The notes under the pieces are model-generated. The model had not been told where the DNA came from, made no database searches, and saw only the letters and a program-made list of their open reading frames with translations. From an uncultured Candidatus Saccharibacteria bacterium (GTDB lineage Bacteria; Patescibacteriota; Saccharimonadia; Saccharimonadales; UBA10212), in NCBI GenBank assembly GCA_964514575.1, contig CAZETJ010000001.1:56014-120013 (forward strand): DNA of 64,000 bases, written 5' to 3'. A program made the translations under genes and the position numbers. Shown piece after piece: positions 1 through 29,210 of this stretch (position 1 is its first letter; every line of letters starts with the position of its first letter).

Positions 1-270
1 GAAAAAAAGCGCCTCAGCCAGTTCCCGGTTGGACAGGGCCTATTTTTCGCTGGCCAAAACCACGTACATATCCAGGTTATCGCCAGCCCGACCGAGACTG
101 ATTTGATAATATCTACCCCTGGTCTGACACCTGTCGAGGGCGAAGCACCAACTGCGGCTGTAGCCTCTCCTGAGATTGAGTCGCCACCACTGGCACAATC
201 GAATATCGAAGCTAGCGGTTCAACTGCCGCCAGTTTGCCACCAAGTATTCAAACTGTTAGCGGAGCATAG
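1..270 (+). CDS. 3' end of an upstream ORF (partial, start outside window); C-terminal Ala/Pro/Ser-rich tail
   Basis: Frame 1 is open from base 1 to TAG at 268-270 (…QSNIEASGSTAASLPPSIQTVSGA*). The next ORF starts 11 nt downstream on the same strand, suggesting operon continuity. Confidence 0.4.
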   Translation, partial: EKKRLSQFPVGQGLFFAGQNHVHIQVIASPTETDLIISTPGLTPVEGEAPTAAVASPEIESPPLAQSNIEASGSTAASLPPSIQTVSGA

Positions 271-281
271 ATTAGCCAGTT

Positions 282-3116
282 ATGGCTAACACAGTTTACG
301 ACCCGGAAACAGAAAAAGACCGCCCGGTTGGCAGCGGAGGTTCGACCGATTTTTTGCGCCGGCGTGAAAGCTTGCATAATCCTGACGCCAGCGATAATCA
401 ACCAGCCGGAAAGGCTGGTGGCCCGCGAGCCGGTAGCGAAAAGGCGCCTGACTATCGTCCTCAATACGCACCTCGTTCCCGTGGAGAGGGGGATGGTGAC
501 GAAAAAGTTTATCGCACTGCTGGCAACGAACCTTCAGATACGCTGGGCGAACCGCTATCAGGCGAAGGCAAAAAATCATCGGCAAAAAAAACTGTTCCCG
601 ACAGAGGTGAGCTGGCACAAAAAGAAGAAGCTGCTACCGGCCAGGAGGCGCAAGCATCCACTGGAGTGGTTCAGCATGAAAACCAAGTTGGCCGCGGTTG
701 GACAGGCAAGGGCGGATCAAAAGCTAACCCTCGCTGGTACGCTCGACATAAACGAAAGTTGATTTGGGGTGGCGTTAGCGCCACTTTGGCCGGACTATCA
801 GTCGCGCTTTTCTTCGCCCTACTTCCTTTAAAAATTCTAAACGTTGTTAACAACCTGCAGAACCGCTTTTTTGCTACCGGGCAGAATGCTGTCCAGACTG
901 AAACGGATAATCTATTCAGGGGCTACGTCATTAAGCATGTCCTGCCGAGTTACAAAACTTGTGGGACAACCATCAGCAAAAACTGCAGTATTAACGTTGT
1001 CGGTACCGATCCCGTTAGTAAGCTCTACCGCAGCTGGTCAACCGGCCGCCTGGAAAACAAATTGGCCCAAAATTATGGTATCGAGTTCCAGCACCGAGCT
1101 GACGGGTGGTATTTAAAGACGCCTAGCACCAGTGGGGTCGGCCTGGCAATCGGTGAAAACGGCGCCGAGCTAGATAGTGCCTTCAAGAAGGTTGGAATCT
1201 CCGAGATTCGCGGGGCAATCAGCCAAGAGACCAGATGGTACCAGGTTTATTTCAGATTCAAAGTCGGAAGCTTGCTTCAAGAAAAGTACGGCATCAGGCG
1301 TTGCTTGATTTTCTGTTCCGTGACGGACCCGCTCACCAACAAAGTGGCCGATCAAAAAATAGCGGCAAAACTGTTTTTGACACAGCGGGTCATCACACCG
1401 CGCAACCAAACGCTAGGCATAGCCTTTGAATGTTTGCTTAACGGTTGCATCGCAGACACTGCCCAGCCGACCACTGACGCAACGCCGGGACTCACAGGGG
1501 CTGAAGCCGGAGCTCCAGAAAATGCTGAAACCGACGCGGCCATCCGTAGAGGTCTCACCAGTTTTGCAGCCAGGTACGGCGTGACTGACAGCGGCTCAGT
1601 TGATGCGCTGGTTCAGACCTACAAAGATATCTCGGACAAAGGTTTTCAGAAATACCTCGTTACCAAAGGACTGGCCCCGTTCATCGGCGAAACTACCGCC
1701 GATGGCTTCACTAAACTGGTACCGATAGCCGGCTGGATAGACCTGACGGCTAGATTGGTTCAGGCGGGTGGCGAAGCCAGCCAAAACCTTAGAAAATTGG
1801 CTTATGTCACTAACGCCACGGCTGCGGTTGATCTATTTTCTATGTATCGGACTTATGCTGATGAGATAAAAAGTGGCCACGCCAACGCTACCGAAGTTGG
1901 CTCGCTAGTTGATTCACTGGGCTCGGGTAACCAGGGATCCTCCACTGATCCAGAAGTCGGCGGCACAGCCAGTGCTGAGCAAGCGCCGCTCTATGATTAT
2001 CTTATCAATGGCAATACCAACGCCAGCGCTTCCTCTGCCACAGCTTCTAAGGGCTCCTTGCTCAGCGACTTGCTGGGATCACAAGTCTTGGCCGCTTCCG
2101 GCGCTACAACCGCAACACCAAGCTATCTATGCAATAACGGCAAGGGCGTGCCTGCCGGTCAGTTGGTCTGCAACGAAGAAATTCTCGGTCAGGGCAACCA
2201 TTACGCCGATACCATAAAAAACATTCCTGGGTATGATTTTCTACAAAAAATATCCGGCTTATGGATGGCGTCTGGCGGACAGGTATTCAGCATTATTAAC
2301 AGTATCTTGGGCAGTGTATTCCAGAAAGTCGTCGCTGGCCTAGACGCCACCTGTGGCCTGCCGCTTTTCAGCCAAGTAAGTCTCTACTGTCAAGCAAAGA
2401 CTCTGGCAAGCGGGGCAGCCTCAACACTGGTCAATGCCGTTACCCAATGGCTTATCCCGAACCCCTTCAGTACTAATATGAGCGGCGCTCGCACATTTGA
2501 TATGATGGCAGCCGGCGCTGATGTGGCTGGGAATGACTCTGCCCATACTACGCTTGGTGGCCAAGCGCTAACACCTGCACAATCGGCCACAATCACTAAC
2601 CAGCAGTTAGCCGACAATCAACAACAATATGCCCAGCAGTCGGTTTTTGCCCGCCTGTTTAGTACCTCGAATCCTTACTCTTTGACCACGAAATTGGCTA
2701 TGGCCCTGCCGATGAACTCATTACCGTCAATTCGTTCGGGCATTGCTAGCTTCCTTGGCAATCCATTCGCTGTCATTGGCCATAGTTTCAGTACATTATT
2801 CTCCGGGCACGCCTATGCGGCCGCCACTGTTCAGGCCGATCCATTTGGCGTTACGCAATATGGTTACCCGGCCGGCACGATTCCAAGTGATCCTCAAACC
2901 TACTGGAATGATAATTGCAGCGACGACGCCTCTCACGCCTACCAGAACGACGCCGCCAATAACAGCTGGAACAGCACGGCGTCCACGACTTTGGATTCTA
3001 ACCACATGCCAATGAACAATTCGACAAACCCCTGCCTGCTGATAATGGCGACCGTTGGTAGCGACGGCGCGACATACAGTTCTGACGTATTAACTGCGGA
3101 CGATCAAGCCAATTAG
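282..3116 (+). CDS. hypothetical large single-pass membrane protein (944 aa): disordered charged N-terminal ~160 aa, one TM helix, ~750-aa Ser/Thr/Ala/Gly-rich extracytoplasmic domain
   Basis: Long ORF in the track; the hydrophobic segment LIWGGVSATLAGLSVALFFALLPLKIL follows a basic patch (RHKRK, inside-positive). I recognise no catalytic motif. Confidence 0.6.
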   Translation: MANTVYDPETEKDRPVGSGGSTDFLRRRESLHNPDASDNQPAGKAGGPRAGSEKAPDYRPQYAPRSRGEGDGDEKVYRTAGNEPSDTLGEPLSGEGKKSSAKKTVPDRGELAQKEEAATGQEAQASTGVVQHENQVGRGWTGKGGSKANPRWYARHKRKLIWGGVSATLAGLSVALFFALLPLKILNVVNNLQNRFFATGQNAVQTETDNLFRGYVIKHVLPSYKTCGTTISKNCSINVVGTDPVSKLYRSWSTGRLENKLAQNYGIEFQHRADGWYLKTPSTSGVGLAIGENGAELDSAFKKVGISEIRGAISQETRWYQVYFRFKVGSLLQEKYGIRRCLIFCSVTDPLTNKVADQKIAAKLFLTQRVITPRNQTLGIAFECLLNGCIADTAQPTTDATPGLTGAEAGAPENAETDAAIRRGLTSFAARYGVTDSGSVDALVQTYKDISDKGFQKYLVTKGLAPFIGETTADGFTKLVPIAGWIDLTARLVQAGGEASQNLRKLAYVTNATAAVDLFSMYRTYADEIKSGHANATEVGSLVDSLGSGNQGSSTDPEVGGTASAEQAPLYDYLINGNTNASASSATASKGSLLSDLLGSQVLAASGATTATPSYLCNNGKGVPAGQLVCNEEILGQGNHYADTIKNIPGYDFLQKISGLWMASGGQVFSIINSILGSVFQKVVAGLDATCGLPLFSQVSLYCQAKTLASGAASTLVNAVTQWLIPNPFSTNMSGARTFDMMAAGADVAGNDSAHTTLGGQALTPAQSATITNQQLADNQQQYAQQSVFARLFSTSNPYSLTTKLAMALPMNSLPSIRSGIASFLGNPFAVIGHSFSTLFSGHAYAAATVQADPFGVTQYGYPAGTIPSDPQTYWNDNCSDDASHAYQNDAANNSWNSTASTTLDSNHMPMNNSTNPCLLIMATVGSDGATYSSDVLTADDQAN

Positions 3117-3118
3117 CT

Positions 3119-4255
3119 ATGCAGATATCGAAACGGTTTTCTTTGCAAAGAATCGCCTGGGCGGCACTGGCCGTAGTACTTTTGCTTTCGAGCCTTGGTG
3201 GAAGCACCGTTTCGGCCCTGACCCAGGACGATATAAATAGTATTTATAACGATACTGTCTGGTATAAGGCCGGAGGCGGTGCAGCATGCGGGTCGGGCAC
3301 TTTGGTCGGAAGCGATAATGCCCAAAAAGTTTGGAACTACCTAAAAGGACAGAGCTTAAGCGACGCTCAGGCAGCCGGCGTAATGGGCAATATGCAACAG
3401 GAGTCCTCGTTCGACCCAGAGAGAATTGAGAGCGGTGGCAATAGTACCAACCCGGCGGACGCTGGGGGCGGGGGCTGGGGTTTAGTCCAATGGACACCAG
3501 GCTCCAAGGTTCTCGATATTGCCCAAAGTCTTAATATTACCGACCCAATCTATCAGCTCTCGACACAGCTAGAAATAGTTTGGGGCGAGATGATTGGCAC
3601 TAGCCCAGTGGGTGTTGTCAATATGCTCAATGGACTGAAGCAAATCAGCGACGCTGCCCAGGCGGCAACCTACTTTAATGCAAATTTTGAAAGCGGTACT
3701 GATCCGAGTGGGGTCAGGGAGACCTATGCCGTGGCGCTGCTAGCTCAATATGGAGGGACTGGCGCCGGTGGTGGCTGTGGTAATTCAATTAGCCCAAATT
3801 GCCAAGCCGCTAGCGGCACGGCTAGGATTCTCTGCGACGCCGAACAGTACGACACGGTTAGTTATAGCGAGGGCGGCGGCCACCAGGGCGGAGCTGCCTG
3901 GCATACCGACTGTCCAAGTATTGGGCCAGGCTGTGTCTTGGATTGCAGCGGTCTTGTGAACGTTGCAATTTATGATGTGTATGGAACAAATATTAATGAG
4001 ACAACGTATACCGAGGCAAGCGACACGCAGTATTGGCATCATATCTCGTTCGGCGAATTACAGCCCGGAGACTTACTAGAGCCGGGGCAATATAACGGCG
4101 GCCATGTAGAAATAGTCGATCATGTTAACGGACACACTATTTACACCTTTGGCGCTCATACTGCCAATGCCCCTCAGCCAGACCAGGTCGGACCGACAAA
4201 TTATCAATCTAATTCTAATGACGTCTACCTGCGTTACGCGGGACCAGGCGCATGA
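3119..4255 (+). CDS. secreted bifunctional peptidoglycan hydrolase: N-terminal lysozyme-like ('phage tail lysozyme'/CwlT-muramidase-like) domain + C-terminal NlpC/P60 cysteine peptidase domain
   Basis: Signal peptide (MQISKRFSLQRIAWAALAVVLLLSSLGGSTVSA). The motif GNMQQESSFDPERIESGG…GWGLVQWT is typical of the lysozyme-like domain of CwlT/tail-associated lysins. The C-terminus has the NlpC/P60-like catalytic Cys context DCSGLV and a downstream His (GGHVEIV). It starts 2 nt after the previous ORF. Confidence 0.7.
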   Translation: MQISKRFSLQRIAWAALAVVLLLSSLGGSTVSALTQDDINSIYNDTVWYKAGGGAACGSGTLVGSDNAQKVWNYLKGQSLSDAQAAGVMGNMQQESSFDPERIESGGNSTNPADAGGGGWGLVQWTPGSKVLDIAQSLNITDPIYQLSTQLEIVWGEMIGTSPVGVVNMLNGLKQISDAAQAATYFNANFESGTDPSGVRETYAVALLAQYGGTGAGGGCGNSISPNCQAASGTARILCDAEQYDTVSYSEGGGHQGGAAWHTDCPSIGPGCVLDCSGLVNVAIYDVYGTNINETTYTEASDTQYWHHISFGELQPGDLLEPGQYNGGHVEIVDHVNGHTIYTFGAHTANAPQPDQVGPTNYQSNSNDVYLRYAGPGA

Positions 4256-4285
4256 ATAACTTAATTTATGCTAAGGTCATAAAAG

Positions 4286-4714
4286 ATGCGGCTTAATAAA
4301 TACATATACTCTCTAGGTCTTCTGTTTTTCGTCGTAGTTGGCGGCCTGGTGGCACAGTACTTGATACTCGGTGGCGCCAGGGAAGTTAAACTATCATCTT
4401 CTGCACCGCTTACTGGCAGCGTTGCCCAAAGCCTGTATTCCGGTAATGGACGAACCAAATTATTAACTCCTGGCAAAGATTTTAATCTTAAAAACACCCA
4501 CTACTTTGATAATAATACCTGGGTAGTGACTACAGTTACGCCGACTAAACAACAGTTTAACCAAGCGGTTGTCGTTCTAGAGAAAAAAGATTCGGCCTAC
4601 CAGGCTGTGCTGGGCCCGGGCAGCGCCTTCTCAAGTAGCGTTCTTATAAGTCTACCGACCGATGTCGCCAATTATCTTAGTAATCTGGGAGTGACTTATG
4701 GACTCGGGCAATAG
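4286..4714 (+). CDS. hypothetical membrane-anchored protein (N-terminal TM/signal anchor)
   Basis: ORF with N-terminal hydrophobic helix LGLLFFVVVGGLVAQYLIL; no recognisable domain. Confidence 0.5.
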   Translation: MRLNKYIYSLGLLFFVVVGGLVAQYLILGGAREVKLSSSAPLTGSVAQSLYSGNGRTKLLTPGKDFNLKNTHYFDNNTWVVTTVTPTKQQFNQAVVVLEKKDSAYQAVLGPGSAFSSSVLISLPTDVANYLSNLGVTYGLGQ

Positions 4715-5348
4715 ACAAAAACTTAGTCTCGCCCTCTATGGGTTGTGCCTCCTAGCTCTGGCGGGGATGGTCTATTTGGTGTTTCAGGCCGTCAACACCG
4801 CCAGCGCCACTGGTATCCTGAAAGTCAGCTCCCCGGATAAAAAATCCTCGCTTAGCGTTAGCCGCACTGACTCGGTAGCCAAGTTCATCGGTGTGGGTGG
4901 CGCTAAAGTACGCCTGAGCCCCGGAAGCTATTTGGTGGGCGCCAGCAATAACGGTCGCCAGGTCTATGAAACCGTCGTTATTAAAAAGCAGGCAACCGCT
5001 AATTTAAGCCTGGATCCTTCCAAGGCAGTTGTTTTCCCAACGGTTGAGGCCGTGGATTTCACCGGTTTTGACTCCCTGATCAACAGCGGTCTCACCTCAG
5101 TCCAGATAAGTATCCTAAAAAGTGCTTTTTTCCGTTATAAGCCAACGGAGAAAACAGTCGCAATCGACGCCTCCAGTGTCGTGCCAGGACCCCATAACCC
5201 AGATACTGACATTGGTTTTAGCCTACAGTTCAACTTATCTCTTGACTCCAGGGCTCTCAAGGCAGTAGTTAGCTATTCTGAGCTTACCAGCGCACGTCTC
5301 CAGCTGTTTGATCAGCAGGGCAGCGCACTTTTTGACTCTAGTAAATAG
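4698..5348 (+). CDS. hypothetical membrane-anchored protein
   Basis: ORF overlapping the previous one by 17 nt; N-terminal TM LSLALYGLCLLALAGMVYLVF; no recognisable domain. Confidence 0.5.
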   Translation: MDSGNRQKLSLALYGLCLLALAGMVYLVFQAVNTASATGILKVSSPDKKSSLSVSRTDSVAKFIGVGGAKVRLSPGSYLVGASNNGRQVYETVVIKKQATANLSLDPSKAVVFPTVEAVDFTGFDSLINSGLTSVQISILKSAFFRYKPTEKTVAIDASSVVPGPHNPDTDIGFSLQFNLSLDSRALKAVVSYSELTSARLQLFDQQGSALFDSSK

Positions 5349-5351
5349 AGC

Positions 5352-6131
5352 TTGCGGTTGCAATTTTTAAGCAAATATGCTATATATAGAGGCGTGAGTA
5401 ATCCAAACAAAAACATCGACCGTCGACAAAAAATAGTACAGCGTGTGGCGCCATGGATGGCTGGCCTCTCTTTAGCTGGCGCTGTGGCCGCAGAAGCCTC
5501 TACCGCCCAGGCGGCTCAAACTAAGACCGAGGTACAGACAGCGGTCAATTATGAGAGTCCCAAGGGGTACCTTAATGAAATTAACAGTCGCTTGTTAGAG
5601 ATAAAATCAGAGCTAATTAAAGCACCCGGTGTAAAGTCTGGCAACACAGGGATGATTACGGGTGATCCCAAGACGCATAAGCTTATCTCAGGAACTTATT
5701 ATATGCTCGAGCGGCCAAGTGGGAAAAATCATAATCATACAGACTTTATAAATATGGTTTTTATAAAAGGTCAGGAGCTGCCTTTTGTGGCTAGTGGGGG
5801 GGTAGATTATTCGGCAAACACTAAAACTGGGCAGCAGTCGGGCGTAGAGTTTTATATGCTGCACGAAGATGTCATCCAGACTGGTGTGGATGGTGGTTTC
5901 AGTAACACCAAATATAAGGACGTTGTAGATTACGACGTGGCCAAGCTCAACATTTCCGTTAATAATCTGAGAAATGCTAAAAGCTATCGCGTAGGCATAC
6001 GCCCGCCTCTAGGCAAACTTCCAAGCGATGACGCTAAAGCTATGTTTGATTATAAGTATCATCCGACCCAGGTCATGGATGCCTACAACCAGTTCTTTGA
6101 GTTGGCTGCCAGTTTCGGTCTAAAGTCCTAG
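5352..6131 (+). CDS. hypothetical secreted protein
   Basis: ORF; likely signal peptide around WMAGLSLAGAVAAEASTAQA; no recognisable domain. Confidence 0.5.
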   Translation: MRLQFLSKYAIYRGVSNPNKNIDRRQKIVQRVAPWMAGLSLAGAVAAEASTAQAAQTKTEVQTAVNYESPKGYLNEINSRLLEIKSELIKAPGVKSGNTGMITGDPKTHKLISGTYYMLERPSGKNHNHTDFINMVFIKGQELPFVASGGVDYSANTKTGQQSGVEFYMLHEDVIQTGVDGGFSNTKYKDVVDYDVAKLNISVNNLRNAKSYRVGIRPPLGKLPSDDAKAMFDYKYHPTQVMDAYNQFFELAASFGLKS

Positions 6132-6132
6132 T

Positions 6133-7188
6133 TTATTTAAGCGCGATTAACTTGTGCCCGCGGTCGAAGTATTCGATGACAGCGTCAGCGTCAGTAGTCG
6201 TTAAAATGGCTTGGCGTCCGGTTAAAAGTTCAACCAGCGCCTGGCGGCGCTTGCCGTCCAGTTCGGAGAAAACATCGTCCAATAGAAGTATTGGGGCTTG
6301 TCCGCGGCTTTTTTCTACCAGCTCGGCCTCGATTTTTTTGAGCGCTAAGATTAATGATCGGGTCTCTCCTCGCGAAGCAGTTATACCGGCGGGGTAGGTA
6401 TTGAGCGAAAATATAAAGTCCTCGCGGTGTGGTCCATGTCCGGTAAAACCCCTAGCTAAATCCGACTGGAGGCTTTTGCCTAATTTAGCGACAAGCCGGC
6501 TGGCGTAGTGGTTGATTGGAAACTCAGCGTCGTATCTAAGGCTCAGTTTGGAGCGCCGGCCAGCAATTTTGTTGTAAGTCCGAGCTAGACTGGTATTAAT
6601 CTGGGTGGCGAGATCCGTGCGCACGGTAGCTAGTTGGGCGCCTAGATCGCCCAGCCGCACATCCCAGGCAAAAAGCTGGCGGCCGGCAAATCTTTCGCCG
6701 CGTTTTAATAGGGCGTTGCGTTGGGTCAGAGTCCGACGATAGGCTGCAGATAAGCTTTTAAATTGCGGGTTGGTGCGCTCTAAGATATCGTCAGCCCAGT
6801 CGCGGCGGTCGGAGGGACTGCCGGCGATAATGGCCGTTTGGTTGGGTTCGAAAAAGACAATTGGAATACTGCGCTCGTAGTTAAGCCTTTTTAGGTTCGT
6901 AGCGTTTATAGAAAAAGTTTTATCTACCGAGTCGCCTATGGGCTCTAGTTTGACGCTTCTTTCTGAGCCTTCAAAAACACCATCTAATCGTGCCCAGGCT
7001 TTGCGGTGCTTGATTAGCTCGGCATCGCTAGCTTTATATGAACGGCCGCGTGACAAAACCATTACTGCTTCTAGCAGGTTGGTTTTGCCGCTGGCATTGG
7101 GACCGACCACAATATTGACGCTTGGCTCAAATTCGAACGACGCGTCAGAGTAACTGCGAAAGTTTTGCAAACGGATAGATCTGATCAT
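6133..7188 (-). CDS. recF: DNA replication and repair protein RecF
   Basis: N-terminal MIRSIRLQNFRSY… and Walker A GPNASGKTNLLEA; C-terminal SMC/RecF-type signature region; canonical position downstream of dnaN. Confidence 0.9.
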   Translation of the reverse strand: MIRSIRLQNFRSYSDASFEFEPSVNIVVGPNASGKTNLLEAVMVLSRGRSYKASDAELIKHRKAWARLDGVFEGSERSVKLEPIGDSVDKTFSINATNLKRLNYERSIPIVFFEPNQTAIIAGSPSDRRDWADDILERTNPQFKSLSAAYRRTLTQRNALLKRGERFAGRQLFAWDVRLGDLGAQLATVRTDLATQINTSLARTYNKIAGRRSKLSLRYDAEFPINHYASRLVAKLGKSLQSDLARGFTGHGPHREDFIFSLNTYPAGITASRGETRSLILALKKIEAELVEKSRGQAPILLLDDVFSELDGKRRQALVELLTGRQAILTTTDADAVIEYFDRGHKLIALK

Positions 7189-7309
7189 TCTTAGTTAAAG
7201 GGTACATTCTATGGCTGTTTGGTTCTAGTCTTATCTGGAAGATAGCCCGAGCGTCGGATTCATTCCGCGCCCGGCGCGATAAGAAACCCTGATGGGGTTT
7301 CTTATTTTG

Positions 7310-8398
7310 CTAGCTGCGCAGCGGCATTATCAAGTGTAGATAATCGGGCTCTGATTTGCTCCTAAGTACACAGGGTTCTAGTTTGCCGTTGAAGCAAAAT
7401 TCTATTTGGTCGCCAGAAAAAGCGTTGAGGGCTTCAATCAGATATCTGGAGTTGAGAGTTACTTCGCCGTCACTGCTGACTTGGGCTTCAGCGGCCGCGG
7501 TGTTTTCTCCCAGCTGGCTGGCGACGGCGTTGATGCTAACTCGGGCGTCTTCTTTGGAGGCTTTAATAGTGATACTACCGGCGCTTTCGCGGGCAAACAA
7601 GCTGGAAACTTTGGCGATGTTGGCCAGGTCTGCTCGAGCCATTTTGGCTGTGGTCGCGAATTTGGAAGGTATTAATTTGCGGTAGTCGGGGTAGGTGCCT
7701 TCGATTAAGCGGGCAACTAGGTTGACGTCGCCAGCATGGAAAGATACCTGCTGGTCGTCATGGCTAACAATTACCTCTTCTTCGTCGCTGATGATCCTTA
7801 GAAGATCGGCGGCAGCGCTGGCCGGTAGCAGAAAATCTATTGGCTGGCTGTTTTTGATAAGTTTGGCCTCGGCTAAGCGGTAGCTATCGGTTGCGGCTAT
7901 TGCCACCCCTGTATCGTCGCCGTGAAAATTTACACCTGTTAAAACCGGTCGAGAGTCATCTGGGCTAGCGGCAAAAACTACTTTAGAAAGTGCTTTTTTG
8001 AAGTCAACTGCTGGAATTTTCCAAGTTGCGGCTTGGCTGATAGCTGGCATAACCGGAAAGTCCTCGGCTGGGATTCCATTAATTACCGATTGATATTGGT
8101 CGGTGGTTATTTTTAGATGGTTTTCTTCTAGCTCTAGGTTTATTACGCCTTCGGGAAGACTGCTAATAAAGTCTTGCATGAGTTTGGCGGGGACGGTGAT
8201 AGCGCCTTCGGCGGTGATTTTGGAACCAACAAAGTGGGTTATGGCGATGTCTAGGTTAGTGGCTGCAATGCTGAGGCGGTTATTTTCGGTTTTAAGGAGT
8301 ACGTTGGCAAGCACAGGGAGTGTGCCGCGGTTACTGGCGATACGAGCAACGGTATTTAGGGACCGAGCTAAATTGTTTTGGGCAACTTGTAGTTTCAT
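7310..8398 (-). CDS. dnaN: DNA polymerase III beta sliding clamp
   Basis: MKLQVAQNNLARSLNTVARIA… is a typical DnaN N-terminus; ~360 aa; located between dnaA and recF. Confidence 0.9.
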   Translation of the reverse strand: MKLQVAQNNLARSLNTVARIASNRGTLPVLANVLLKTENNRLSIAATNLDIAITHFVGSKITAEGAITVPAKLMQDFISSLPEGVINLELEENHLKITTDQYQSVINGIPAEDFPVMPAISQAATWKIPAVDFKKALSKVVFAASPDDSRPVLTGVNFHGDDTGVAIAATDSYRLAEAKLIKNSQPIDFLLPASAAADLLRIISDEEEVIVSHDDQQVSFHAGDVNLVARLIEGTYPDYRKLIPSKFATTAKMARADLANIAKVSSLFARESAGSITIKASKEDARVSINAVASQLGENTAAAEAQVSSDGEVTLNSRYLIEALNAFSGDQIEFCFNGKLEPCVLRSKSEPDYLHLIMPLRS

Positions 8399-11843: not shown

Positions 11844-12319
11844 AAGACGATATCGAAGAGGCGATCTTATATGCTAAAAAATATATCGAGGATTTACTCA
11901 GCTTCTTCGGTCTGAATGCTGACGTTCACGCTACTACCGAAGACAGCGAGGTAATTGAGCTTGACGTACCATCAACCCATCTCAACGGCTTTTTAATAGG
12001 CAACCGCGGGGAGACCATGCGGGCATTGCAGCAAACGATTGGCTTCGCTCTCAGGAACCAAGGCTACAGCCATAGCCGGGTTAATGTGGACGTCGCTGGC
12101 TACAAACAGCAGCGCGCCCAGCGCCTGGTTAAAGAAGCTGAAGGCTGGTTTAGGGAAGTTCAAAAAAGCGGCCAGCCGAAAGAATTGTCGCCCATGAACG
12201 CCGCCGACCGCCGAACCATTCATAAAGCTGCCGTTGATTACGGTCTATCGAGTGAGTCGGCTGGTTTCGGGCGTGATCGGCACATTGTCTTAAAACCAGA
12301 AGAATCAAACGAAGCTTAA
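11840..12319 (+). CDS. jag: Jag/KhpB-like RNA-binding protein (KH + R3H domains)
   Basis: 4-nt overlap with yidC; KH-like GNRGETMRALQ and a C-terminal R3H-type region (ADRRTIHKAAVDYGLSSES.G); classic gene order. Confidence 0.75.
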   Translation: MKDDIEEAILYAKKYIEDLLSFFGLNADVHATTEDSEVIELDVPSTHLNGFLIGNRGETMRALQQTIGFALRNQGYSHSRVNVDVAGYKQQRAQRLVKEAEGWFREVQKSGQPKELSPMNAADRRTIHKAAVDYGLSSESAGFGRDRHIVLKPEESNEA

Positions 12320-13407
12320 CCGCCCAGAACCTGCTTATAAACTGCTAGGGTCTGCTCAGCCATGCGCCGCCAAGAGTACTTAGCAGCTTGGGTGCGGCCC
12401 TTTTTAATAAGCTGGTCTCGTAGGTCGCTAGACTCCAAAACATCGTTTATTTTGGCAGCTATATCGTGGGGGTCTTGCGGATCAAAGTAGTGGGCAGCCG
12501 AGCCATAAATTTCCGGCAAACAAGTAGCATTACTGGAAACAACCGGAGCGCCGTGGGCCATAGCCTCTAGCCCCGGCAGGCCGAAACCTTCGGATAGAGA
12601 AGGGAAAATATAGGCAGACGTCTGTTCGTAAAGCCAGCGTAACTGGCCTTCGGTGACAAAATCCGTAAAAACAACATTTGCGATACCGCCGTCACGGACT
12701 CTTTTTTCTATTTGCTCATAAAGCACATCTTTTTTGCCGGCTAATACTAACTGTAGGCTAGGCCAGTCCTTTTGTAACAACTGAAAGGCTTCTATTAGTC
12801 GCCAAAGGTTTTTGTGGGGCAGAGGCCGACCAACATACATAATGAATTTGCCAGCAACGACACCTTTAACGTACTTGGCAGGATCAGTTATTTGATCGGC
12901 GGCCAGATAGGTAACATGAATTTTTGATGGGTTAATGTGGGTGTAGTTGGCAATGTCCTGTTTTACGAACTTGGAGATCGTAAAAATAGCCTTAGATTTT
13001 CTAACTACCCATTGAACCACGCCGCGATAGACCCACTGTTTAAACTTAAACACCAAATAGTTTTTGGCAGGGTTGGTAAAACGGGCGGTGGTCAAATCAT
13101 GAATAGTGGTGACGGTTCTACCGAAGTAAAAAACTGGTTGGTGGGTCATTGTAAAGTGCACCAGATCCGGCTTAAACGAGTAGAGCTGAGAAGCCAGCTT
13201 GGTCTGCTCGCTCAGCGAGAACTCTTTGAAGTTCGATTCTCGAACCGCAAAGTCCGGCGTAGCTCGTTTAAAAAAGGCTACACGATGTGGTTTGGTATGG
13301 ATGACAATCTCGAATTCCGGTTTAAGTTCGTGCAGATTCTCAATCAGTTTATCGATATGACGGCCAGTGCTGGTACCGGATTCACGAGCCTCAATAACGA
13401 CTTTCAT
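12316..13407 (-). CDS. glycosyltransferase family 1 (GT4-like)
   Basis: C-terminal GT-B motif EGFGLPGLEAMAHGAPVVSS. Confidence 0.8.
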   Translation of the reverse strand: MKVVIEARESGTSTGRHIDKLIENLHELKPEFEIVIHTKPHRVAFFKRATPDFAVRESNFKEFSLSEQTKLASQLYSFKPDLVHFTMTHQPVFYFGRTVTTIHDLTTARFTNPAKNYLVFKFKQWVYRGVVQWVVRKSKAIFTISKFVKQDIANYTHINPSKIHVTYLAADQITDPAKYVKGVVAGKFIMYVGRPLPHKNLWRLIEAFQLLQKDWPSLQLVLAGKKDVLYEQIEKRVRDGGIANVVFTDFVTEGQLRWLYEQTSAYIFPSLSEGFGLPGLEAMAHGAPVVSSNATCLPEIYGSAAHYFDPQDPHDIAAKINDVLESSDLRDQLIKKGRTQAAKYSWRRMAEQTLAVYKQVLGG

Positions 13408-14783
13408 TTTAAAGCGCTTTGACGGGATTTATTGTCAGCAAAACTAGCTGTTAAGAGTAGCCCAACTACGATCCAAAGCCGGGTTAGCAATATAGAATGG
13501 AAGAAATTGCTCTGGACCAGCATACCAATCATTACCAGCGTCATAGCCGCCGCTTCTCCTTTCCAAGAGTTCTTAAATAAGCGGTACATAATCACAAGGA
13601 CTGCGATAACTAGCGGCGCAAAGGCCACAACTCCCAACAGGCCCAAGTCGACGAGCAAACCCAAAAAATCATTGTTGAAGGGCTGCAGTGAATCGGGATT
13701 AGCACCGTGGTTATATTTATCGAGATTTAATCTGATCCTGCTGTTGTAGCCGCCGACGCCCTGTAAAGGTTTTTCTTTAAAATAAGTAAAAGCCTTTGGC
13801 CAGAGCTTATAGCGGGTTTGGGCAGAGGCATCGAGCACATTTACGCCGTGGCCCGTAAATATTTCGACATTGCCTATACCGGAGCCAGAACCATTGATGG
13901 AGTGTTTAGGGATGGCTTTCGAAAGCGCCCCAGCAAAGCCGATTAAAACAAGTGTAGTGATGAGTCCAATCGTCCACCACCTTGCCATAAAAATCCAAAA
14001 ATCCTTGAGTTTATGGCGATTTCTCATACCCCAAATTAAAATAAGCCAACCCAGGGCAACGGCAATAATGGCGCCGCGTGCTATTAGAAGAAAGACTAAC
14101 GTTGTTAAAGAGCCAAATAGTAAAAGATGGGGTCGACTGCGGCGGAGCTTATTATCCCTCAAAAAATCAAATGTTAACAACCAAATCGGTATTAAAAGGT
14201 AATTCGCGAAGTAGAGGGGTTCAAGCGAAGTTGACTGTACCCGAGGGAAAACATAAGTTGAATATTGTGAAGTACAGCAATGTTGCAGGTCGGTCACTTT
14301 TGTTGAGATTCCAAATACATCGAAAAAGAACTGAAAGAAAGCATAGGCTACGACTATTGCGCTAACAACGTAAATTGTTTTCTTTACCAATAACCACAAT
14401 TGCTGAGGTCGTTCAGAAACTAGAACGAAGAAGCAAAACGCTCGTAGCGTCACTGACAGTAAGTCTTTCGTGGCCCCTAAGGTAAAAGATCGGTCTATCG
14501 CGTAGGTAGAACTAAGGGCATAAGCAGCAACCGGGAGAGCTAAAATAGTACCAAAAAAGAAGTACCGCCTAAGATCCCCAAAGCGACCAACTGACCAAAC
14601 GTTTAACAAACGCCCGCTTACAGCGATCAGTAGTAAAACCAAGGATATAAAACCTAGACTGAGCGGAACGTGATGTATGTATGGGAATCGGTCAATTGGC
14701 AAGAGCGCCAAAGTAATAACAACGCCCAGAAACTCCGAGTAATTAACAAGCCTGCGCCAGTACATTTTTGGGCTCTGCACCAT
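13404..14783 (-). CDS. O-antigen ligase/polymerase-like (Wzy_C domain) polytopic membrane protein
   Basis: ~12 predicted TM helices with a large periplasmic/external loop, as in WaaL/Wzy/PglL-type proteins; 4-nt overlap with the adjacent GT. Confidence 0.55.
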   Translation of the reverse strand: MVQSPKMYWRRLVNYSEFLGVVITLALLPIDRFPYIHHVPLSLGFISLVLLLIAVSGRLLNVWSVGRFGDLRRYFFFGTILALPVAAYALSSTYAIDRSFTLGATKDLLSVTLRAFCFFVLVSERPQQLWLLVKKTIYVVSAIVVAYAFFQFFFDVFGISTKVTDLQHCCTSQYSTYVFPRVQSTSLEPLYFANYLLIPIWLLTFDFLRDNKLRRSRPHLLLFGSLTTLVFLLIARGAIIAVALGWLILIWGMRNRHKLKDFWIFMARWWTIGLITTLVLIGFAGALSKAIPKHSINGSGSGIGNVEIFTGHGVNVLDASAQTRYKLWPKAFTYFKEKPLQGVGGYNSRIRLNLDKYNHGANPDSLQPFNNDFLGLLVDLGLLGVVAFAPLVIAVLVIMYRLFKNSWKGEAAAMTLVMIGMLVQSNFFHSILLTRLWIVVGLLLTASFADNKSRQSALK

Positions 14784-14852
14784 ATCATCTTAACATAGCT
14801 AACCCCTTATAAGTTATACTAGTGGAGTAAATAACCGGGGGAATATATATCC

Positions 14853-15884
14853 ATGCCCAAACAGCCAAGACGAGCACTAATTACCGGAATCACTGGGCAG
14901 GACGGTAGTTACCTGACCGAGCTGCTATTGAATAAAGGTTATGAAGTTTACGGCATTGTTAGACGATCGAGCTCTCTCAACACAGACCGCATTGACCATA
15001 TCTACCAGGATCCGCACGAAAAAAAGACCCGCCTTCAGCTCATATTCGGCGACCTAACCGACACTAGCACCGTTTATAATATTTTGACCCAAGTACAGCC
15101 AGATGAAGTTTACAATTTGGGCGCCCAGAGCCATGTGCGAGTGTCTTTTGAGCTGCCCGAATATACCGGCGATAGCGTTGGTCTGGGCGCAGTAAGGCTC
15201 TTGGAAGCTATACATCGCCTAGGCCTAAAAACCAAATATTATCAAGCTGGTTCCAGTGAGATGTTTGGCAAGGTTAGAGAAATTCCCCAAAATGAAAACA
15301 CGCCATTCTACCCGCGCTCTCCGTACTCTGTAGCTAAAGTTTATGCTCACTGGATCACCGTCAATTACCGCGAAAGCTACGACATGTTCGCCTGCAACGG
15401 AATTCTTTTTAACCACGAAAGTCCGCGCCGGGGCGAAACATTTGTAACCCGGAAAGTAACTCGAGCAATTGCTCGAATTTTGGCCGGGCTCCAAGACGAA
15501 ATCTATATGGGTAATCTAGATTCTAAGCGCGACTGGGGGTACGCCAAAGAGTACGTCGAAGCCATGTGGCTAATGCTCCAGCAGGAAAAACCTGACGATT
15601 ATGTTATCGCTACCGGCGAAACTCACTCAGTACGTGAATTTGTTGAAGAGGCCTTCAAGTTGGTCGGTTTAGATTGGAAAAAATACGTCAAGTTCGATAA
15701 GCGTTATTTGCGGCCGGCGGAAGTCGATGTGCTTATCGGAGACGCCAGCAAGGCCAAGAAAAAACTCGGTTGGAAACCAAAAACCACTTTTTCCGAACTG
15801 GTCAAAATTATGGTCGACGCCGATATTGCCGAGCTTGAAGACCAGCTTCAAGGAAAGGTAAAGCTTCGTCGAGAAGTGATATAG
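14853..15884 (+). CDS. gmd: GDP-mannose 4,6-dehydratase
   Basis: N-terminus [33 protein letters not shown] and a YxxxK catalytic region ([11 protein letters not shown]) are highly characteristic of Gmd; 343 aa. Confidence 0.9.
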
Positions 15885-15889
15885 GTTGC

Positions 15890-17035
15890 TTAGGCAAGCT
15901 TTTCGAGCACAGCTATTAATTGTTCAGCTGATTTTTCCCAGCTGAATTTTCGGGCTTGGGTTAAGCCCTTGGCTCGTAAACTGGCAGCCAGTTTTTGGTC
16001 AGTTAAGACAGCCGCTATCTGCCTGCTCAAGTCGTCAGTGGCATCGGCCTTAATTTTAATAGCAGCGTCGCCGACGACCTCAGGCAAAGACGAATTATCG
16101 CTAGTTATGAGCGGTACGCCACAAGCCATAGCCTCCAGCGGGGGGATGCCAAAGCCCTCATAAAAAGACGGGAAGACAAATAAGCTGGCGCCGGAATAGA
16201 GAACTGGGAGATCCTCGTCGGTGACATAGCCAGGTAAAATAATTCGCTCCTGATTTGCCTGCAGTTGAGCAATCTTTTGACCGATAGACTCATCGTTCCA
16301 GCCCTTCCCACCAGCTAAGACTAAAGCATAGTCGCTTTTTAACTCAGGCTTAAGCTCAGCGTAGGCTTCGAGTATGCCGACGATATTTTTACGTGGTTCC
16401 AGCGTGCCAACAAATAAAATATATTTTGTCGGCAAATCAAATTTTTTACGCAACCGATTAACTTCGTTGGCAGGTCTCGGGTAATAATGCTTGTGATCGA
16501 CCGCATTTGGAACAACCGAAATTTTACTGGCACTAATCTCAAAGTTTTTTAATATGTCTTTCTTGGTAAAGTCCGAAACAGCAATAACATGCCGGGATTC
16601 GATAATCGATTTGGGCACAAATCGCCTAAGATATAGCAGATTTTTGCGTTGGACGTAATCTGGGAAATGGATGTATGACAAGTCGTGGATGGCAACTATA
16701 CCAGCTGTTTTTTTGCGCAAGTTAAACATCACAAAGTTAAAAAATAAAAAGGCATCATAATTTCGTAGGGCTACCAAGTCATAAGGTAGAAACCGGCCCA
16801 GACGTTTGAAGACCTGGAAGTAAACTGCTGGGGGAAACCAGCGGACTATCCGATAGGTCAGATGCGAAGAAGGCGGGATCGGTGGAGTGAATCTTCTGAA
16901 AGGCAAGTAGTGTCTAACAACTTCAAATTTAATTGGTGAGTCTATTTTCGAGACCGCCTCGGTCAACTTATAAGCATACTGGCCGACACCGGTGCGGGGC
17001 TTAAACAACAAACTACTTTCAATGCCGACCTTCAT
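15890..17035 (-). CDS. glycosyltransferase family 1
   Basis: GT-B C-terminal domain (…EGFGIPPLEAMACGVPLITS…). Confidence 0.75.
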   Translation of the reverse strand: MKVGIESSLLFKPRTGVGQYAYKLTEAVSKIDSPIKFEVVRHYLPFRRFTPPIPPSSHLTYRIVRWFPPAVYFQVFKRLGRFLPYDLVALRNYDAFLFFNFVMFNLRKKTAGIVAIHDLSYIHFPDYVQRKNLLYLRRFVPKSIIESRHVIAVSDFTKKDILKNFEISASKISVVPNAVDHKHYYPRPANEVNRLRKKFDLPTKYILFVGTLEPRKNIVGILEAYAELKPELKSDYALVLAGGKGWNDESIGQKIAQLQANQERIILPGYVTDEDLPVLYSGASLFVFPSFYEGFGIPPLEAMACGVPLITSDNSSLPEVVGDAAIKIKADATDDLSRQIAAVLTDQKLAASLRAKGLTQARKFSWEKSAEQLIAVLEKLA

Positions 17036-18111
17036 GGCAGATCTTTCTGTTGAACAAGGTCATGATAGACCGCCAGCGTCTGTTGAACAGTGTTATTAAT
17101 TGAAAAATCCTTTTCTATTCTCTTGCGTGCTTTTTCGCGCATATGTTCATATCGAGAAGTGTCTCTAGCTAAAGAAGAAATTTCTGTCAGGAATTTTTTG
17201 GCGTCAAACTGCGTGATAAGTATCCCCGTGCCGTCTGTCAGCAGCTCATTAGGGCCACTGACCGCAGTCGATATAACAGGCACGCCACAAGCCATGGCTT
17301 CGAGGGCTACAAACGGGAGTCCCTCGTAGAATGAAGTCATACAAAGGACCGAAGCTTGACGATAAATTTTCGCCATGGCTTGTGGTTTTTGCGAGCCGAG
17401 TAAGGCCAGGTTTGGCGAGCGTTTTTTGTTTATCTCGCCCAAGCGATTACCGTCACCAACCATACGAAATCGCAGAGGCGAGCCTTGCTTGTAAGCCAAT
17501 TGGGCTATTTGTAGAAATAGATCGGGATTTTTTTGAGCCTTTTCGACCCGACCTATCCATGTAACGTATTGACCCGGCTGCCCATTGTATTTAAAACTTG
17601 CCGGGTCCACTCCATTATGAATGACGATACATTTTGTAGAATTGACGCCGCGTTTAACCAATTGCTTTTTGGCTTCACCACTGACGCAGATTATTTTATC
17701 TAGACTATTCAAAACTCTGGCGACATAGGTGTCATAGTCTCGCGAGATTATGAAATCGACGTGCAGAGTCAGCATCAGAGGACGCTTACGAATCGCTTCT
17801 ATTAAAGCTCCGTCGAACCACTGGATGTTAATGGCATCATAGCGATCGAAGTTATAGAAACAGCCAATAAGCAGCCGATAGTATAGGCGTTTCAGCCGGT
17901 GTGTTCGTCGGAGTAACCTATCAAAAAACGTAGGAAAAAGCGGCAACCACAAGGTTTCAACTCTATCTCCAATGAAATTCTTTATAAAACGAGGACCCAG
18001 AATTGTAACAACATAGTCTGACCGTAGCTCGTCAACGATTTTTCTAAGATAAGCTTCACCACCACCAAAATTTTTGGCAGACGAAATTATTAGAAGTCTT
18101 GGCCTAGTCAT
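17032..18111 (-). CDS. glycosyltransferase family 1
   Basis: GT-B motif YEGLPFVALEAMACGVPVIST; 4-nt overlap with neighbours. Confidence 0.75.
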   Translation of the reverse strand: MTRPRLLIISSAKNFGGGEAYLRKIVDELRSDYVVTILGPRFIKNFIGDRVETLWLPLFPTFFDRLLRRTHRLKRLYYRLLIGCFYNFDRYDAINIQWFDGALIEAIRKRPLMLTLHVDFIISRDYDTYVARVLNSLDKIICVSGEAKKQLVKRGVNSTKCIVIHNGVDPASFKYNGQPGQYVTWIGRVEKAQKNPDLFLQIAQLAYKQGSPLRFRMVGDGNRLGEINKKRSPNLALLGSQKPQAMAKIYRQASVLCMTSFYEGLPFVALEAMACGVPVISTAVSGPNELLTDGTGILITQFDAKKFLTEISSLARDTSRYEHMREKARKRIEKDFSINNTVQQTLAVYHDLVQQKDLP

Positions 18112-19075
18112 ACTTACCTGTCTCTCTAGCTCGGTATTGCTTAGAAAAGCGGTACCTTAAAAACCTAAGCACAGGATTACCCAACAGCAGGCGTAGGTAG
18201 ACAAAGAGTCTATGCCGATTGGGGGTCAGCCAGGCCAGAGGGTTATAACTCAGCATTCTAATAAACGCCTGACGAGCCGACTGCCTGTCGTTGCCATCCA
18301 GATATAATGAACAGGCCTGCCCGAGGCAAGCAGAGGCTAGTCTGGCACGGTTGAGCGGCCCGAGCTCAAATTCATCAATCATAATCGGTAATGCGTAATC
18401 GAGTCCACGGGCTTTTTCTAAGAACTTAGGTCGGGAGCTGGCAGCGCCAACTCGATAAGCCGCTAAGAACTCAGGAACGTAATCAATCGTGTAAGACCGA
18501 GCAACTCTTAACCATAGCTCCCAATCTTCTGCCATAGCAAAATCTTCACGGAATGCACCAATTTCCTCAAAGACTTCTCGACGCAGCATGACAATACTGG
18601 CGCTGCCTGAAATGTTGTTACCGCTAAGCAAATATTTAAATAAATCACCCCGTTTCTTGTCGGCTATTTTTGAGGTGATTCTACCAGTTTCGTCAATAAC
18701 TTTGCACAAACCGTAGACCATGCCTAACTGCTTATCCTCGGTAAGCAGAGCTAGTTGTTTTTGCAGTTTGGCAGGATACCAAATATCATCGGAGTCTAGA
18801 AAAGCTACATAGGGCGACTTCGACCTTTTAAGCCCATAATTGCGAGCTGCCGAACGACCCTTCTTAGGATTTTTGATATAAGTCACTCTATGGTCGGCTA
18901 TACCTTTAACATACTCGGCTGTAGCGCCATTATCAGTTGATCCATCGTCTACCACATAGAGCAACCAGTTGTGGTGGGTCTGTTTTATAACACTTTCTAT
19001 CGCTTCTTTTAAATAGGGCATGCTGTTATACGTTGGGATAATGACGTCGACCGGAAAATCTGAGCTTGTCGTCAT
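18104..19075 (-). CDS. glycosyltransferase family 2
   Basis: N-terminal GT-A signature VDVIIPTYNSMPYLKEAIESV…VVDDGSTD and a DxD (DSDD) motif. Confidence 0.8.
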   Translation of the reverse strand: MTTSSDFPVDVIIPTYNSMPYLKEAIESVIKQTHHNWLLYVVDDGSTDNGATAEYVKGIADHRVTYIKNPKKGRSAARNYGLKRSKSPYVAFLDSDDIWYPAKLQKQLALLTEDKQLGMVYGLCKVIDETGRITSKIADKKRGDLFKYLLSGNNISGSASIVMLRREVFEEIGAFREDFAMAEDWELWLRVARSYTIDYVPEFLAAYRVGAASSRPKFLEKARGLDYALPIMIDEFELGPLNRARLASACLGQACSLYLDGNDRQSARQAFIRMLSYNPLAWLTPNRHRLFVYLRLLLGNPVLRFLRYRFSKQYRARETGKYD

Positions 19076-21657: not shown

Positions 21658-21666
21658 CTTTGTCTT

Positions 21667-23819: not shown

Positions 23820-23828
23820 CGTTTTGAA

Positions 23829-27051: not shown

Positions 27052-27054
27052 AGA

Positions 27055-29199: not shown

Positions 29200-29210
29200 A
29201 AGTTTCCTTT

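Follow-up and report, generated by a model that had tools for sequence, protein, structure and literature searches.

A Chromosomal Type IV Secretion Cluster Beside the Replication Origin of an Uncultured Saccharimonadales Bacterium: Content of Its Distal, Envelope-Facing Part

Results

Gene Layout at the Start of the Window

The window analyzed here is a 64,000-nt stretch of contig CAZETJ010000001.1 (assembly GCA_964514575.1) from an uncultured Candidatus Saccharibacteria bacterium of the order Saccharimonadales. Positions 1-6131 of the window are filled by six near-abutting genes on the forward strand (Table 1), which were identified, with very little doubt, as the distal, envelope-facing third of a chromosomal, MPF_FATA-related type IV secretion system (T4SS) cluster lying next to the replication origin. 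The genes encode the C-terminal end of a VirB4-like ATPase, a 944-aa envelope protein (p944), a two-domain cell wall hydrolase and three small proteins (p142, p216, and p259). The original prediction, made from the letters of this DNA, had counted five or possibly six co-directional and tightly spaced genes, and the open reading frame (ORF) table gave six when the 3′ end of virB4 was included. The gap between the virB4 stop codon and the p944 gene is 11 nt. The following four spacers, down to p259, are 2, 30, -17, and 3 nt, the negative value being a 17-nt overlap of the p142 and p216 genes, and the p259 stop lies 1 nt from the convergent recF. In public gene calls, p259 starts at 5358, giving 257 aa. 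Within 1-7400, promoter-like and terminator-like sites showed no excess over shuffled sequence, a result compatible with one transcription unit.

The recF-dnaN-dnaA block on the reverse strand converges on the T4SS operon and marks the origin neighborhood, and rpmH, rnpA, yidC, and jag were found beyond dnaA, on the side opposite to the operon. Because this is the canonical arrangement, the label "origin-proximal" given by the original prediction is justified. Counts of DnaA boxes were not above chance. An 87-aa ORF, which overlaps the dnaA start by 8 nt and has no Pfam match, occupies the usual dnaA-dnaN intergenic (oriC-associated) place.

Table 1. Genes and features of the T4SS cluster, the origin region and the rest of the window. 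Identity refers to the closer relative, locus L036.
Feature	Position (nt)	Strand	Product	Basis or remark	Identity to L036
VirB6-like gene	upstream contig, before PrgI-like gene	+	1053 aa	topology	68%
PrgI/VirB3-like gene	upstream contig	+	318 aa	PF12666, 7.7e-7, 30 bits (cutoff 27)	87%
TrsD-like gene	upstream contig	+	285 aa	NF041427 (TrsD/TraD), 3.1e-7, under curated cutoff; matches VirB4 N-termini	81%
VirB4-like T4SS ATPase gene, 3′ end	1-270	+	last 89 codons and stop; full gene 652 aa	frame-1 translation is the C-terminus of L001 5194-7152	93%
p944 gene	282-3116	+	944 aa, bitopic envelope protein	ORF table	74%
p944 hydrophobic span	774-830	+	residues 165-183		
Hydrolase gene	3119-4255	+	378 aa, secreted lysozyme + NlpC/P60 hydrolase	ORF table, Pfam	85%
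Hydrolase signal peptide	3119-3217	+	residues 1-33	predicted cleavage VSA/LT	
Hydrolase gp13-type lysozyme domain	3308-3754	+	residues 64-212	predicted catalytic E95	
Hydrolase NlpC/P60 endopeptidase domain	3800-4252	+	residues 228-378	C276/H329/H347	
p142 gene	4286-4714	+	142 aa, small bitopic protein	ORF table	86%
p216 gene	4698-5348	+	216 aa, N-terminally anchored or exported	ORF table	81%
p259 gene	5352-6131	+	259 aa, final operon gene	ORF table	37%
recF	6133-7188	-		Pfam SMC_N; context only, not a machine part	
dnaN	7310-8398	-		Pfam DNA_pol3_beta; context only, not a machine part	
ORF between dnaN and dnaA	8407-8670	-	87 aa	gene-called on public contigs	
dnaA	8663-10042	-		Pfam Bac_DnaA; context only, not a machine part	
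Run of about 17 co-directional genes	~12316-30041	-			
B_lectin protein gene	31112-33190	-	692 aa		
tRNA-Asn(GTT)	51313-51387	-			
XFP phosphoketolase gene	51428-53809	+			
ORF with TTG start	55212-56573	+	453 aa	no Pfam match	
ORF in 53-55% GC stretch	60061-62265	+	734 aa	no Pfam match	

Upstream Genes Belong to a T4SS

The genes before base 1 were read from public contigs, 19 of which were retrieved by exact-protein look-up of the hydrolase. The longest (ENA ERZ27245399 k141_3681296, 87 kb) showed 100% identity to the window across all 14,255 overlapping nt, with window base 1 corresponding to base 6883 of locus L001. On this contig, the operon begins with the VirB6-like, PrgI/VirB3-like, and TrsD-like genes, followed by virB4. 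The 652-aa VirB4 matched the NCBIfam model conju_CD1110 (2.2e-108, 363.5 bits, cutoff 325) as well as Pfam P-loop_TraG (1.3e-26) and AAA_10, so that a VirB4 of the monoderm (FATA-like) type sits in the same operon as p944 and the hydrolase. The VirB6-like protein had no HMM match and was tentatively assigned from its conserved position and topology, with a signal-like N-terminus, five more hydrophobic spans (six in total) and a long C-terminal tail. A second look-up, centered on p944, revealed seven adjacent, divergently oriented (-) pilin genes of 95-140 aa upstream of the VirB6-like gene, six of which match PF18895 (T4SS_pilin) and/or PF04956 (TrbC). The whole cluster therefore reads: seven divergent pilins; VirB6-like, VirB3/PrgI-like, TrsD-like, VirB4, p944, hydrolase, p142, p216, and p259; then recF, dnaN, and dnaA.

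The original prediction had suspected that the operon continued upstream and that it was the tail end of a T4SS-like apparatus, and inspection of the identical contig bore out both points: the upstream genes are T4SS genes, not the housekeeping surroundings of an ordinary autolysin. Its statement that no VirB4 or VirD4 ATPase lay inside the window held for one half. The end of VirB4 is present, and window ORFs with a length of 450 aa or more included no recognizable type IV coupling protein (T4CP), relaxase, or integrase; the ten largest other ORFs in this size class contained nothing that resembled a T4CP or a relaxase. Likewise, no relaxase, integrase, or T4CP was recognized in the visible genes upstream of the operon, which were pilins only, and no paralogues of the T4SS genes were found elsewhere in the 64-kb window.

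The Hydrolase Combines a gp13-Type Lysozyme With an NlpC/P60 Endopeptidase

The protein encoded after p944 carries a predicted cleavable signal peptide, and its hydrophobic N-terminal helix (residues 4-25) and AxA site are conserved across the family. Two catalytic domains follow, joined by a Gly-rich linker. The first matched PF18013 (Phage_lysozyme2) at 2.6e-28 over residues 66-206, and no other lysozyme family and no SLT (lytic transglycosylase) domain was found in Pfam at E ≤ 0.1. The second matched NlpC/P60 at 2.8e-4 and 21.3 bits, slightly below the 23-bit cutoff. This assignment stands because C276, H329, and H347 are invariant and the AlphaFold2 (AF2) fold matches NlpC/P60 structures. 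E95 is also invariant in the alignment of 47 homologues, as are several cysteines. E95 lies in GNMQQES and aligns to residue 45 of phi29 gp13; C276 and H329 lie in DCSGLV and GHVEIV. The AF2 model (predicted local distance difference test, pLDDT, 86.5) shows the signal helix, then a linker with little order, the lysozyme domain, which is helical, and an alpha+beta C-terminal domain. In Foldseek, the first domain matched gp13 with a TM-score of 0.70 and 25% identity, and the C-terminal half matched MepS, RipA/B/D, and MAP1204 with probabilities of 0.99-1.0. The lysozyme-like plus NlpC/P60 composition proposed by the original prediction was thus confirmed by Pfam, by the invariant catalytic residues, and by the modeled structure.

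The same prediction had called the protein CwlT-like. The shared C-terminal NlpC/P60 domain with its Cys-His-His residues, the export, and the position downstream of VirB4 in a T4SS operon agree with the CwlT family; the N-terminal domain does not. Phi29 gp13 (PDB 3csq/3csr) was the closest solved sequence, at 1e-6 with the single sequence and 8e-17 with the 47-homologue profile, and a phage Gp16 (9m7n) matched as well. The CwlT structure 4fdy was reached weakly (E 0.084) and through residues 214-263 of the NlpC/P60 part alone, and no CwlT entry appeared among the best 50 of 303 Foldseek matches. The N-terminal domain therefore belongs to the phi29 gp13 family and is not demonstrably of the CwlT type. 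Gp13-type and CwlT-type domains are both lysozyme-superfamily folds and their activity is therefore analogous, and the hydrolase, which lies outside the VirB1/SLT-type transglycosylases, is a functional analogue of VirB1 and CwlT.

With gp13 the hydrolase shares the PF18013 lysozyme, the conserved GNMQxES motif, and a pair of activities against glycan and peptide. The second domain of gp13 is of the LytM/M23 type, whereas that of the hydrolase is NlpC/P60; moreover, the hydrolase is exported by a signal peptide and is encoded in a T4SS operon rather than a phage genome.

p944 Is a Single-Pass Protein of a Large Saccharibacterial Family

The description of p944 in the original prediction, as a protein with a disordered cytoplasmic N-terminus, one transmembrane (TM) segment, and a huge external domain, was reproduced. 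Residues 1-160 had a pLDDT below 50 and are predicted to be disordered, a single hydrophobic span follows a basic flank (RHKRK), and the ectodomain of about 760 aa was modeled as mainly helical and cysteine-rich (whole model: pLDDT 70, predicted TM-score 0.74). Ten cysteines of the ectodomain are invariant, which implies an N-in/C-out topology with extracytoplasmic disulfides.

No match to p944 was found in Pfam, NCBIfam, PHROGs, or PADLOC, and a sequence-profile search of the PDB was empty. In Foldseek, the best PDB matches were membrane transporters at E 0.05, which are meaningless at TM-scores below 0.1, and BFVD gave no match (best E 0.31). In an exhaustive profile search, 1669 cluster representatives (50% identity) passed E ≤ 1e-3, of which 584 also passed E ≤ 1e-30. 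The best 150 HMMER matches listed were all full-length family members, and none among them offered a remote link to a named T4SS component. The named sources were overwhelmingly Saccharibacteria/Patescibacteria; two labels of metagenome-assembled genomes (MAGs), Sulfotelmatobacter and Verrucomicrobiae, are probably mis-binned. Homologues were seen solely in this T4SS context, and p944 followed virB4 directly in every related locus that showed both genes.

The 39 closer homologues in Saccharibacteria were compared beyond the end of p944. A C-terminal tail of 154-257 aa was present in 26 of them; the remaining 13, including the p944 of this locus, are tailless. The tails fall into eight mutually unrelated BLAST clusters, read as about five module types. 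By Pfam, four sequences carry VanY/M15, one M23, and one beta-lactamase2, and others show LAS-type H...D...HxH, M23-like, or Cys/His peptidase motifs. This pattern suggests a scaffold role for p944 in the wall zone, with swappable peptidoglycan peptidases repeatedly grafted to it. At the present locus, the peptidase activity is predicted from the domains to reside in the NlpC/P60 part of the hydrolase and not in p944. We also considered a simple complementarity, with peptidase tails on p944 restricted to loci whose next gene has no peptidase of its own, but it fails: L007 and L012 have both a p944 peptidase tail and a CHAP-containing next gene.

PrgK of pCF10 and TraG of pIP501 are membrane-anchored multidomain T4SS hydrolases. 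Like the p944 homologues, they have a cytoplasmic N-terminus, one TM segment, and a large extracytoplasmic region ending in a peptidoglycan-cleaving module, and they are encoded beside VirB4. However, no sequence or fold similarity to p944 was detected, the modules of the p944 homologues are M15, M23, or Cys-peptidases rather than SLT or CHAP, and the p944 studied here lacks any catalytic module.

The original prediction had also allowed for a domesticated phage module. In that case, p944 would correspond to a tail or tape-measure protein and the hydrolase to a tail-tip lysin. PF18013 is indeed named for the lysozymes of phage tails, phi29 gp13 and a phage Gp16 are the closest relatives of the domain with solved structures, and tape-measure and endolysin families are among the PHROGs matched by the hydrolase. 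These matches are confined to its catalytic domains, however; p142, p216, and p259, like p944, had none in PHROGs, and the BFVD search with p944 was empty as well. Genes for the T4SS and for replication surround the block, no capsid, portal, or terminase gene lies among them, and the locus is conserved beside the origin. We regard the phage origin of these genes as effectively refuted.

The Three Small Proteins Differ in Spread and Divergence

Three small membrane or secreted proteins had been expected at the end of the operon, and TM spans were found in p142 and p216 and secretion was predicted for p259. In p142, a TM span near the N-terminus (residues 10-28) is followed by an extracytoplasmic domain of some 110 aa, and neither a family nor a PDB match was found. 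Its homologues occur in four other loci only (five in all), each time between the hydrolase and a p216-family gene, and p142 is regarded as an accessory component present in a minority of related loci. p216 has a TM span at residues 11-29; its beta-sandwich half is variable, and its C-terminal domain is conserved. Its family has the widest spread of the three, being present in 17 loci, and relatives show Ig-like or PEGA hints, all sub-threshold.

Around residues 33-47, p259 is Ala-rich and weakly hydrophobic, and it also carries an AQA motif. A word-indexed search of 5.8e9 proteins retrieved only p259 itself, and no family or PDB match was found. Relatives were present in two loci only (L036 19214-20116 and L033 11095-11832); the L036 orthologue has 37% identity and is enlarged by an insertion of some 50 aa. 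Elsewhere in Saccharimonadales, the recF-adjacent slot holds proteins unrelated to p259, including a family of about 470 aa that was found downstream of the hydrolase in six other loci. p259 is orphan-like and diverges far more quickly than its operon neighbors.

Gene Order Is Fixed and Hydrolytic Modules Are Exchanged

Related loci were collected by scanning one genome per GTDB species with a 14-sequence alignment of the p944 family, which yielded 29 loci. Their labels are mostly Saccharibacteria/Saccharimonadales, and a few generic or Sulfotelmatobacter/Verrucomicrobiia MAGs are probably mis-binned. Gene order was determined by phmmer searches of twelve proteins against the six-frame ORFs of each locus. 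The order VirB6-like, PrgI, TrsD, VirB4, p944, hydrolase, small genes, recF(-), dnaN(-), dnaA(-) was constant wherever the contig sufficed. In L036, a closer relative, the entire arrangement recurs, and the pilin array, Hsp20, and ComF are part of it. Two of the loci also have a second, shorter TrsD-like ORF (E ~1e-18) beyond dnaA, outside the T4SS operon (L012 17032-17646 and L021 21784-22416).

Because the site beside recF-dnaN-dnaA is the same across the 29 species-level loci, the T4SS block is taken to be inherited vertically and not mobile. This bears on whether the genes could be an integrated conjugative element (ICE) of the Firmicutes type, as in Tn916 or ICEBs1, serving DNA transfer. 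Several features would fit such an element: the VirB4 belongs to the conjugative family CD1110, it is accompanied by TrsD-like and PrgI-like genes, a bifunctional hydrolase lies downstream of VirB4, and the published phylogeny points to MPF_FATA ancestry. Nevertheless, no relaxase, integrase, or T4CP was recognized in the visible upstream genes or in the window ORFs from 450 aa upward, the pilin array is atypical of Gram-positive conjugation (PMC10633639), and the 52% GC of the T4SS region is equaled by other segments of the window. On the conserved chromosomal site and the lack of recognized mobility genes, an ICE was rejected as highly improbable.

The gene following p944 was scanned with Pfam in ten sampled loci and encoded a multi-domain peptidoglycan hydrolase in nine; the tenth had no Pfam match. 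Three carried PF18013+CHAP, and the other combinations occurred once each: Amidase_3+NlpC/P60, Amidase_3+CHAP, PF18013+M15_4, GDSL esterase+PF18013+M23, GH75 chitosanase+Amidase_3+PF18013, and GH3+NlpC/P60. In the wider hydrolase family, the partner domains include SGNH, M15_4, CHAP, VanY, M23, and C39-like domains. Almost always, then, this slot combines a glycan- or amide-cleaving module with a peptide-cleaving module, and the modules are freely exchanged. The PF18013+NlpC/P60 hydrolase of the present locus is the minimal two-activity set. Separately, proteins of about 600 aa that combine PF18013 with VanY/M15 (for example P0144, P0146, and P0152) were seen in Actinobacteria, namely Brachybacterium and Corynebacterium xerosis; this is the phylum that hosts the cultured Saccharibacteria.

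The fixed order also bears on a housekeeping role, under which p944, the hydrolase, and the small proteins would form an operon for autolysis or cell separation, linked to the T4SS genes upstream by nothing but its position. Lysozyme plus NlpC/P60 hydrolases commonly serve growth and daughter-cell separation, and the genes are near the origin and essential in Ca. Southlakia epibionticum. The 11-nt gap to virB4 without any excess of promoter or terminator signals, the order VirB4-p944-hydrolase in every locus where it is visible, and the restriction of p944 homologues to the T4SS context all speak against it, and according to the literature, a dedicated hydrolase at this place is the rule in monoderm T4SS operons. 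Such a separate operon is accordingly judged improbable.

Discussion

Relation to Described Systems

The T4SS to which these genes belong has already been described, and the locus is the distal part of the same system in a new uncultured lineage. For Ca. Southlakia epibionticum, Wang et al. (2023) reported an "apparent T4SS" encoded by SEML1_0006-0019. It most resembles the conjugation machinery of Gram-positive bacteria, its pilin genes are essential, and coupling and relaxase proteins were not recognizable (PMC10633639). The order there is dnaA, dnaN, recF, SEML1_0004-0007, 0008 (VirB4/TraC), 0009, 0010 (PrgI), 0011, and the pilins 0014-0019, and each of SEML1_0004-0011 was essential by transposon sequencing (PMC10633639). 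SEML1_0004 has 249 aa and SEML1_0005 is a PEGA-domain exported protein (PMC10633639 Table S2); SEML1_0006 (643 aa) joins a Cys proteinase to two lysozyme-like domains, one of them PF18013, and SEML1_0007 (1113 aa) ends in a Hedgehog/DD-peptidase fold (PMC10633639). In a wider survey, the VirB4 clade of CPR (candidate phyla radiation) bacteria was placed as sister to MPF_FATA (Quiñonero-Coronel et al., 2025; PMC12102498). TrsD, PrgI, and VirB2 arrays accompany VirB4 of this clade, peptidase and lysozyme homologues lie directly downstream of virB4, and the T4SS genes are often near dnaA/dnaN (PMC12102498).

The cluster of strain ML1 and the present one, both in Saccharimonadia, agree in gene order: pilins, VirB6-like, PrgI, TrsD-like, and VirB4 genes come first, the genes for a large protein, a hydrolase of the lysozyme type, and small exported proteins follow, and recF-dnaN-dnaA stands at the end. 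Neither cluster has a relaxase or a T4CP. They differ in detail. p944 is the positional equivalent of SEML1_0007 but lacks its C-terminal DD-peptidase (Hedgehog/LAS) domain, and the hydrolase has two domains in 378 aa, whereas the 643-aa SEML1_0006 consists of glucosaminidase, lysozyme, and Cys-proteinase parts. The present cluster has the extra 142-aa gene and seven pilins, against six in Southlakia. p216 probably corresponds to SEML1_0005, judging from position and size; for p259, homology to SEML1_0004 cannot be shown.

Compared with ICEBs1 and Tn916, the locus shares VirB4, a large membrane protein, a secreted muramidase plus NlpC/P60 hydrolase dedicated to the machine, and small membrane proteins. 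The gene orders of these elements are conE-yddF-conG-cwlT-yddI-yddJ and orf16-orf15-orf14-orf13, respectively. Their large protein is polytopic, whereas p944 is single-pass and the VirB6-like protein is encoded upstream. Moreover, the muramidase here is of the gp13 type (PF18013), VirB2-like pilins are present, no relaxase or T4CP was seen, and the locus is fixed and non-mobile. CwlT itself is a bifunctional muramidase/peptidase needed for ICEBs1 conjugation (PMC9324163).

Proposed Role of the Distal Genes

The identity given above, together with the following mechanism, appears to be a well-supported best explanation of the locus as a whole. VirB4, TrsD, and the VirB3-like and VirB6-like proteins would form the membrane translocon and pilin-extraction motor. 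p944 would stand beside it, with its N-terminus in the cytoplasm and its disulfide-stabilized helical ectodomain reaching into and through the wall, and may serve as a scaffold that positions peptidoglycan cleavage; in most relatives, the cleaving module would be fused to the p944 C-terminus. The Sec-exported hydrolase is predicted to cut the glycan strand through its lysozyme domain (E95) and the peptide stem through its NlpC/P60 domain (C276/H329/H347). It could thereby open a local gap in the sacculus and let the channel or pilus through the monoderm wall, the task that CwlT, PrgK, and VirB1 perform in conjugative systems. The small proteins p142 and p216 may be membrane-anchored accessory subunits of the wall zone, and p259 a secreted, quickly diverging, lineage-specific factor. 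That the hydrolytic module serves assembly through the cell's own wall has, in our estimate, a slightly better than even chance of being right.

Several points weigh against this interpretation. Essentiality and function would be extended to this genome by extrapolation from Southlakia, and the homology of p944, p216, and p259 to SEML1_0007, 0005, and 0004 is drawn from position, size, and architecture. The scaffold role is proposed for a protein whose fold has no PDB or BFVD match and whose copy here has no catalytic module. No VirB8-like (NTF2-fold) component was recognized among the small proteins, since the p142, p216, and p259 profiles gave nothing significant against the PDB. Since neither a T4CP nor a relaxase was seen, a conjugation-like mechanism cannot simply be assumed, and because the hydrolases of conjugative T4SSs are also diverse, the observed diversity would fit either the own wall or that of the host as the target.

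A possible, less favored reading keeps the same T4SS but lets the peptidoglycan-cleaving module, made up of the hydrolase, the peptidase tails of p944 homologues, and perhaps p259, mainly breach the wall of an actinobacterial host at the contact site, so that the pilus or channel could reach the host membrane for effector injection or for extraction of nutrients or DNA; remodeling of the own wall would then be secondary, and the two roles are not exclusive. Modules vary at a fixed hydrolase position and among the p944 tails, and such turnover is typical of foreign-wall enzymes, among them phage lysins and antibacterial effectors. Against O-acetylated or N-deacetylated peptidoglycan, the GDSL-esterase and chitosanase modules may be of use, the hydrolase has a cleavable signal peptide without an anchor, and the adjacent p259 is hypervariable. 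The literature regards the substrate and role of the saccharibacterial T4SS as unknown (PMC10633639, PMC12857230, PMC11665869) and speculates on effector delivery or uptake (PMC11665869), and an action of donor CwlT on recipients has been considered for ICEBs1 (PMC9324163). However, the hydrolases of Gram-positive conjugation are equally diverse and yet act on the donor wall, so that diversity alone does not discriminate. Moreover, the locus carries only the minimal two-activity set.

That the distal genes are a toolkit for breaching the host wall rather than an aid to self-wall assembly seems somewhat more doubtful still. Under that proposal, p944 would be a wall-spanning stalk presenting interchangeable peptidoglycan-cleaving modules where epibiont and host meet, the host sacculus would be the substrate of the hydrolase, and p259 might be a lineage-specific host-recognition factor or effector. 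If so, the module content of a locus would track the peptidoglycan chemotype of the host and help to set host range.

The saccharibacterial T4SS is essential for epibiotic growth in the sole species tested, and the present locus is categorically nothing new. What it adds is a p944 without a peptidase, the shuffling of modules at the hydrolase slot, and a quickly evolving terminal gene. The p944 family emerges as a large family, almost entirely from Saccharibacteria/Patescibacteria where named, that carries swappable peptidoglycan peptidases. The minimal hydrolase of this locus is suited to biochemistry, and the proteins of the recF-adjacent slot are candidate host-specific factors.

Other Features of the Window

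Beyond the origin region, the run of about 17 co-directional genes on the reverse strand includes a Wzy_C O-antigen-ligase-like gene, a GT4 glycosyltransferase gene, and a gene for a 550-aa methyltransferase-domain protein, and it looks like a surface-polysaccharide biosynthesis cluster. The 692-aa protein combines a D-mannose-binding lectin domain (B_lectin) with an Ig-like domain and is a possible surface adhesin or carbohydrate binder. The only tRNA gene of the window, tRNA-Asn(GTT), adjoins the XFP phosphoketolase gene, and Rfam gave no other family at gathering score over the 64 kb. The 453-aa ORF has a C-terminal zinc-ribbon-like CPEC...CPDC motif followed by a basic tail. Finally, the 734-aa ORF, with the N-terminus MARLPIPGSDDGTWGDILNSFLEVEHNSDGT, lies in the stretch of 53-55% GC at 60-64 kb. 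Its body is Gly/Thr/Val-rich and repetitive-looking, and the protein may resemble surface proteins of the tail-fiber or beta-helix type.

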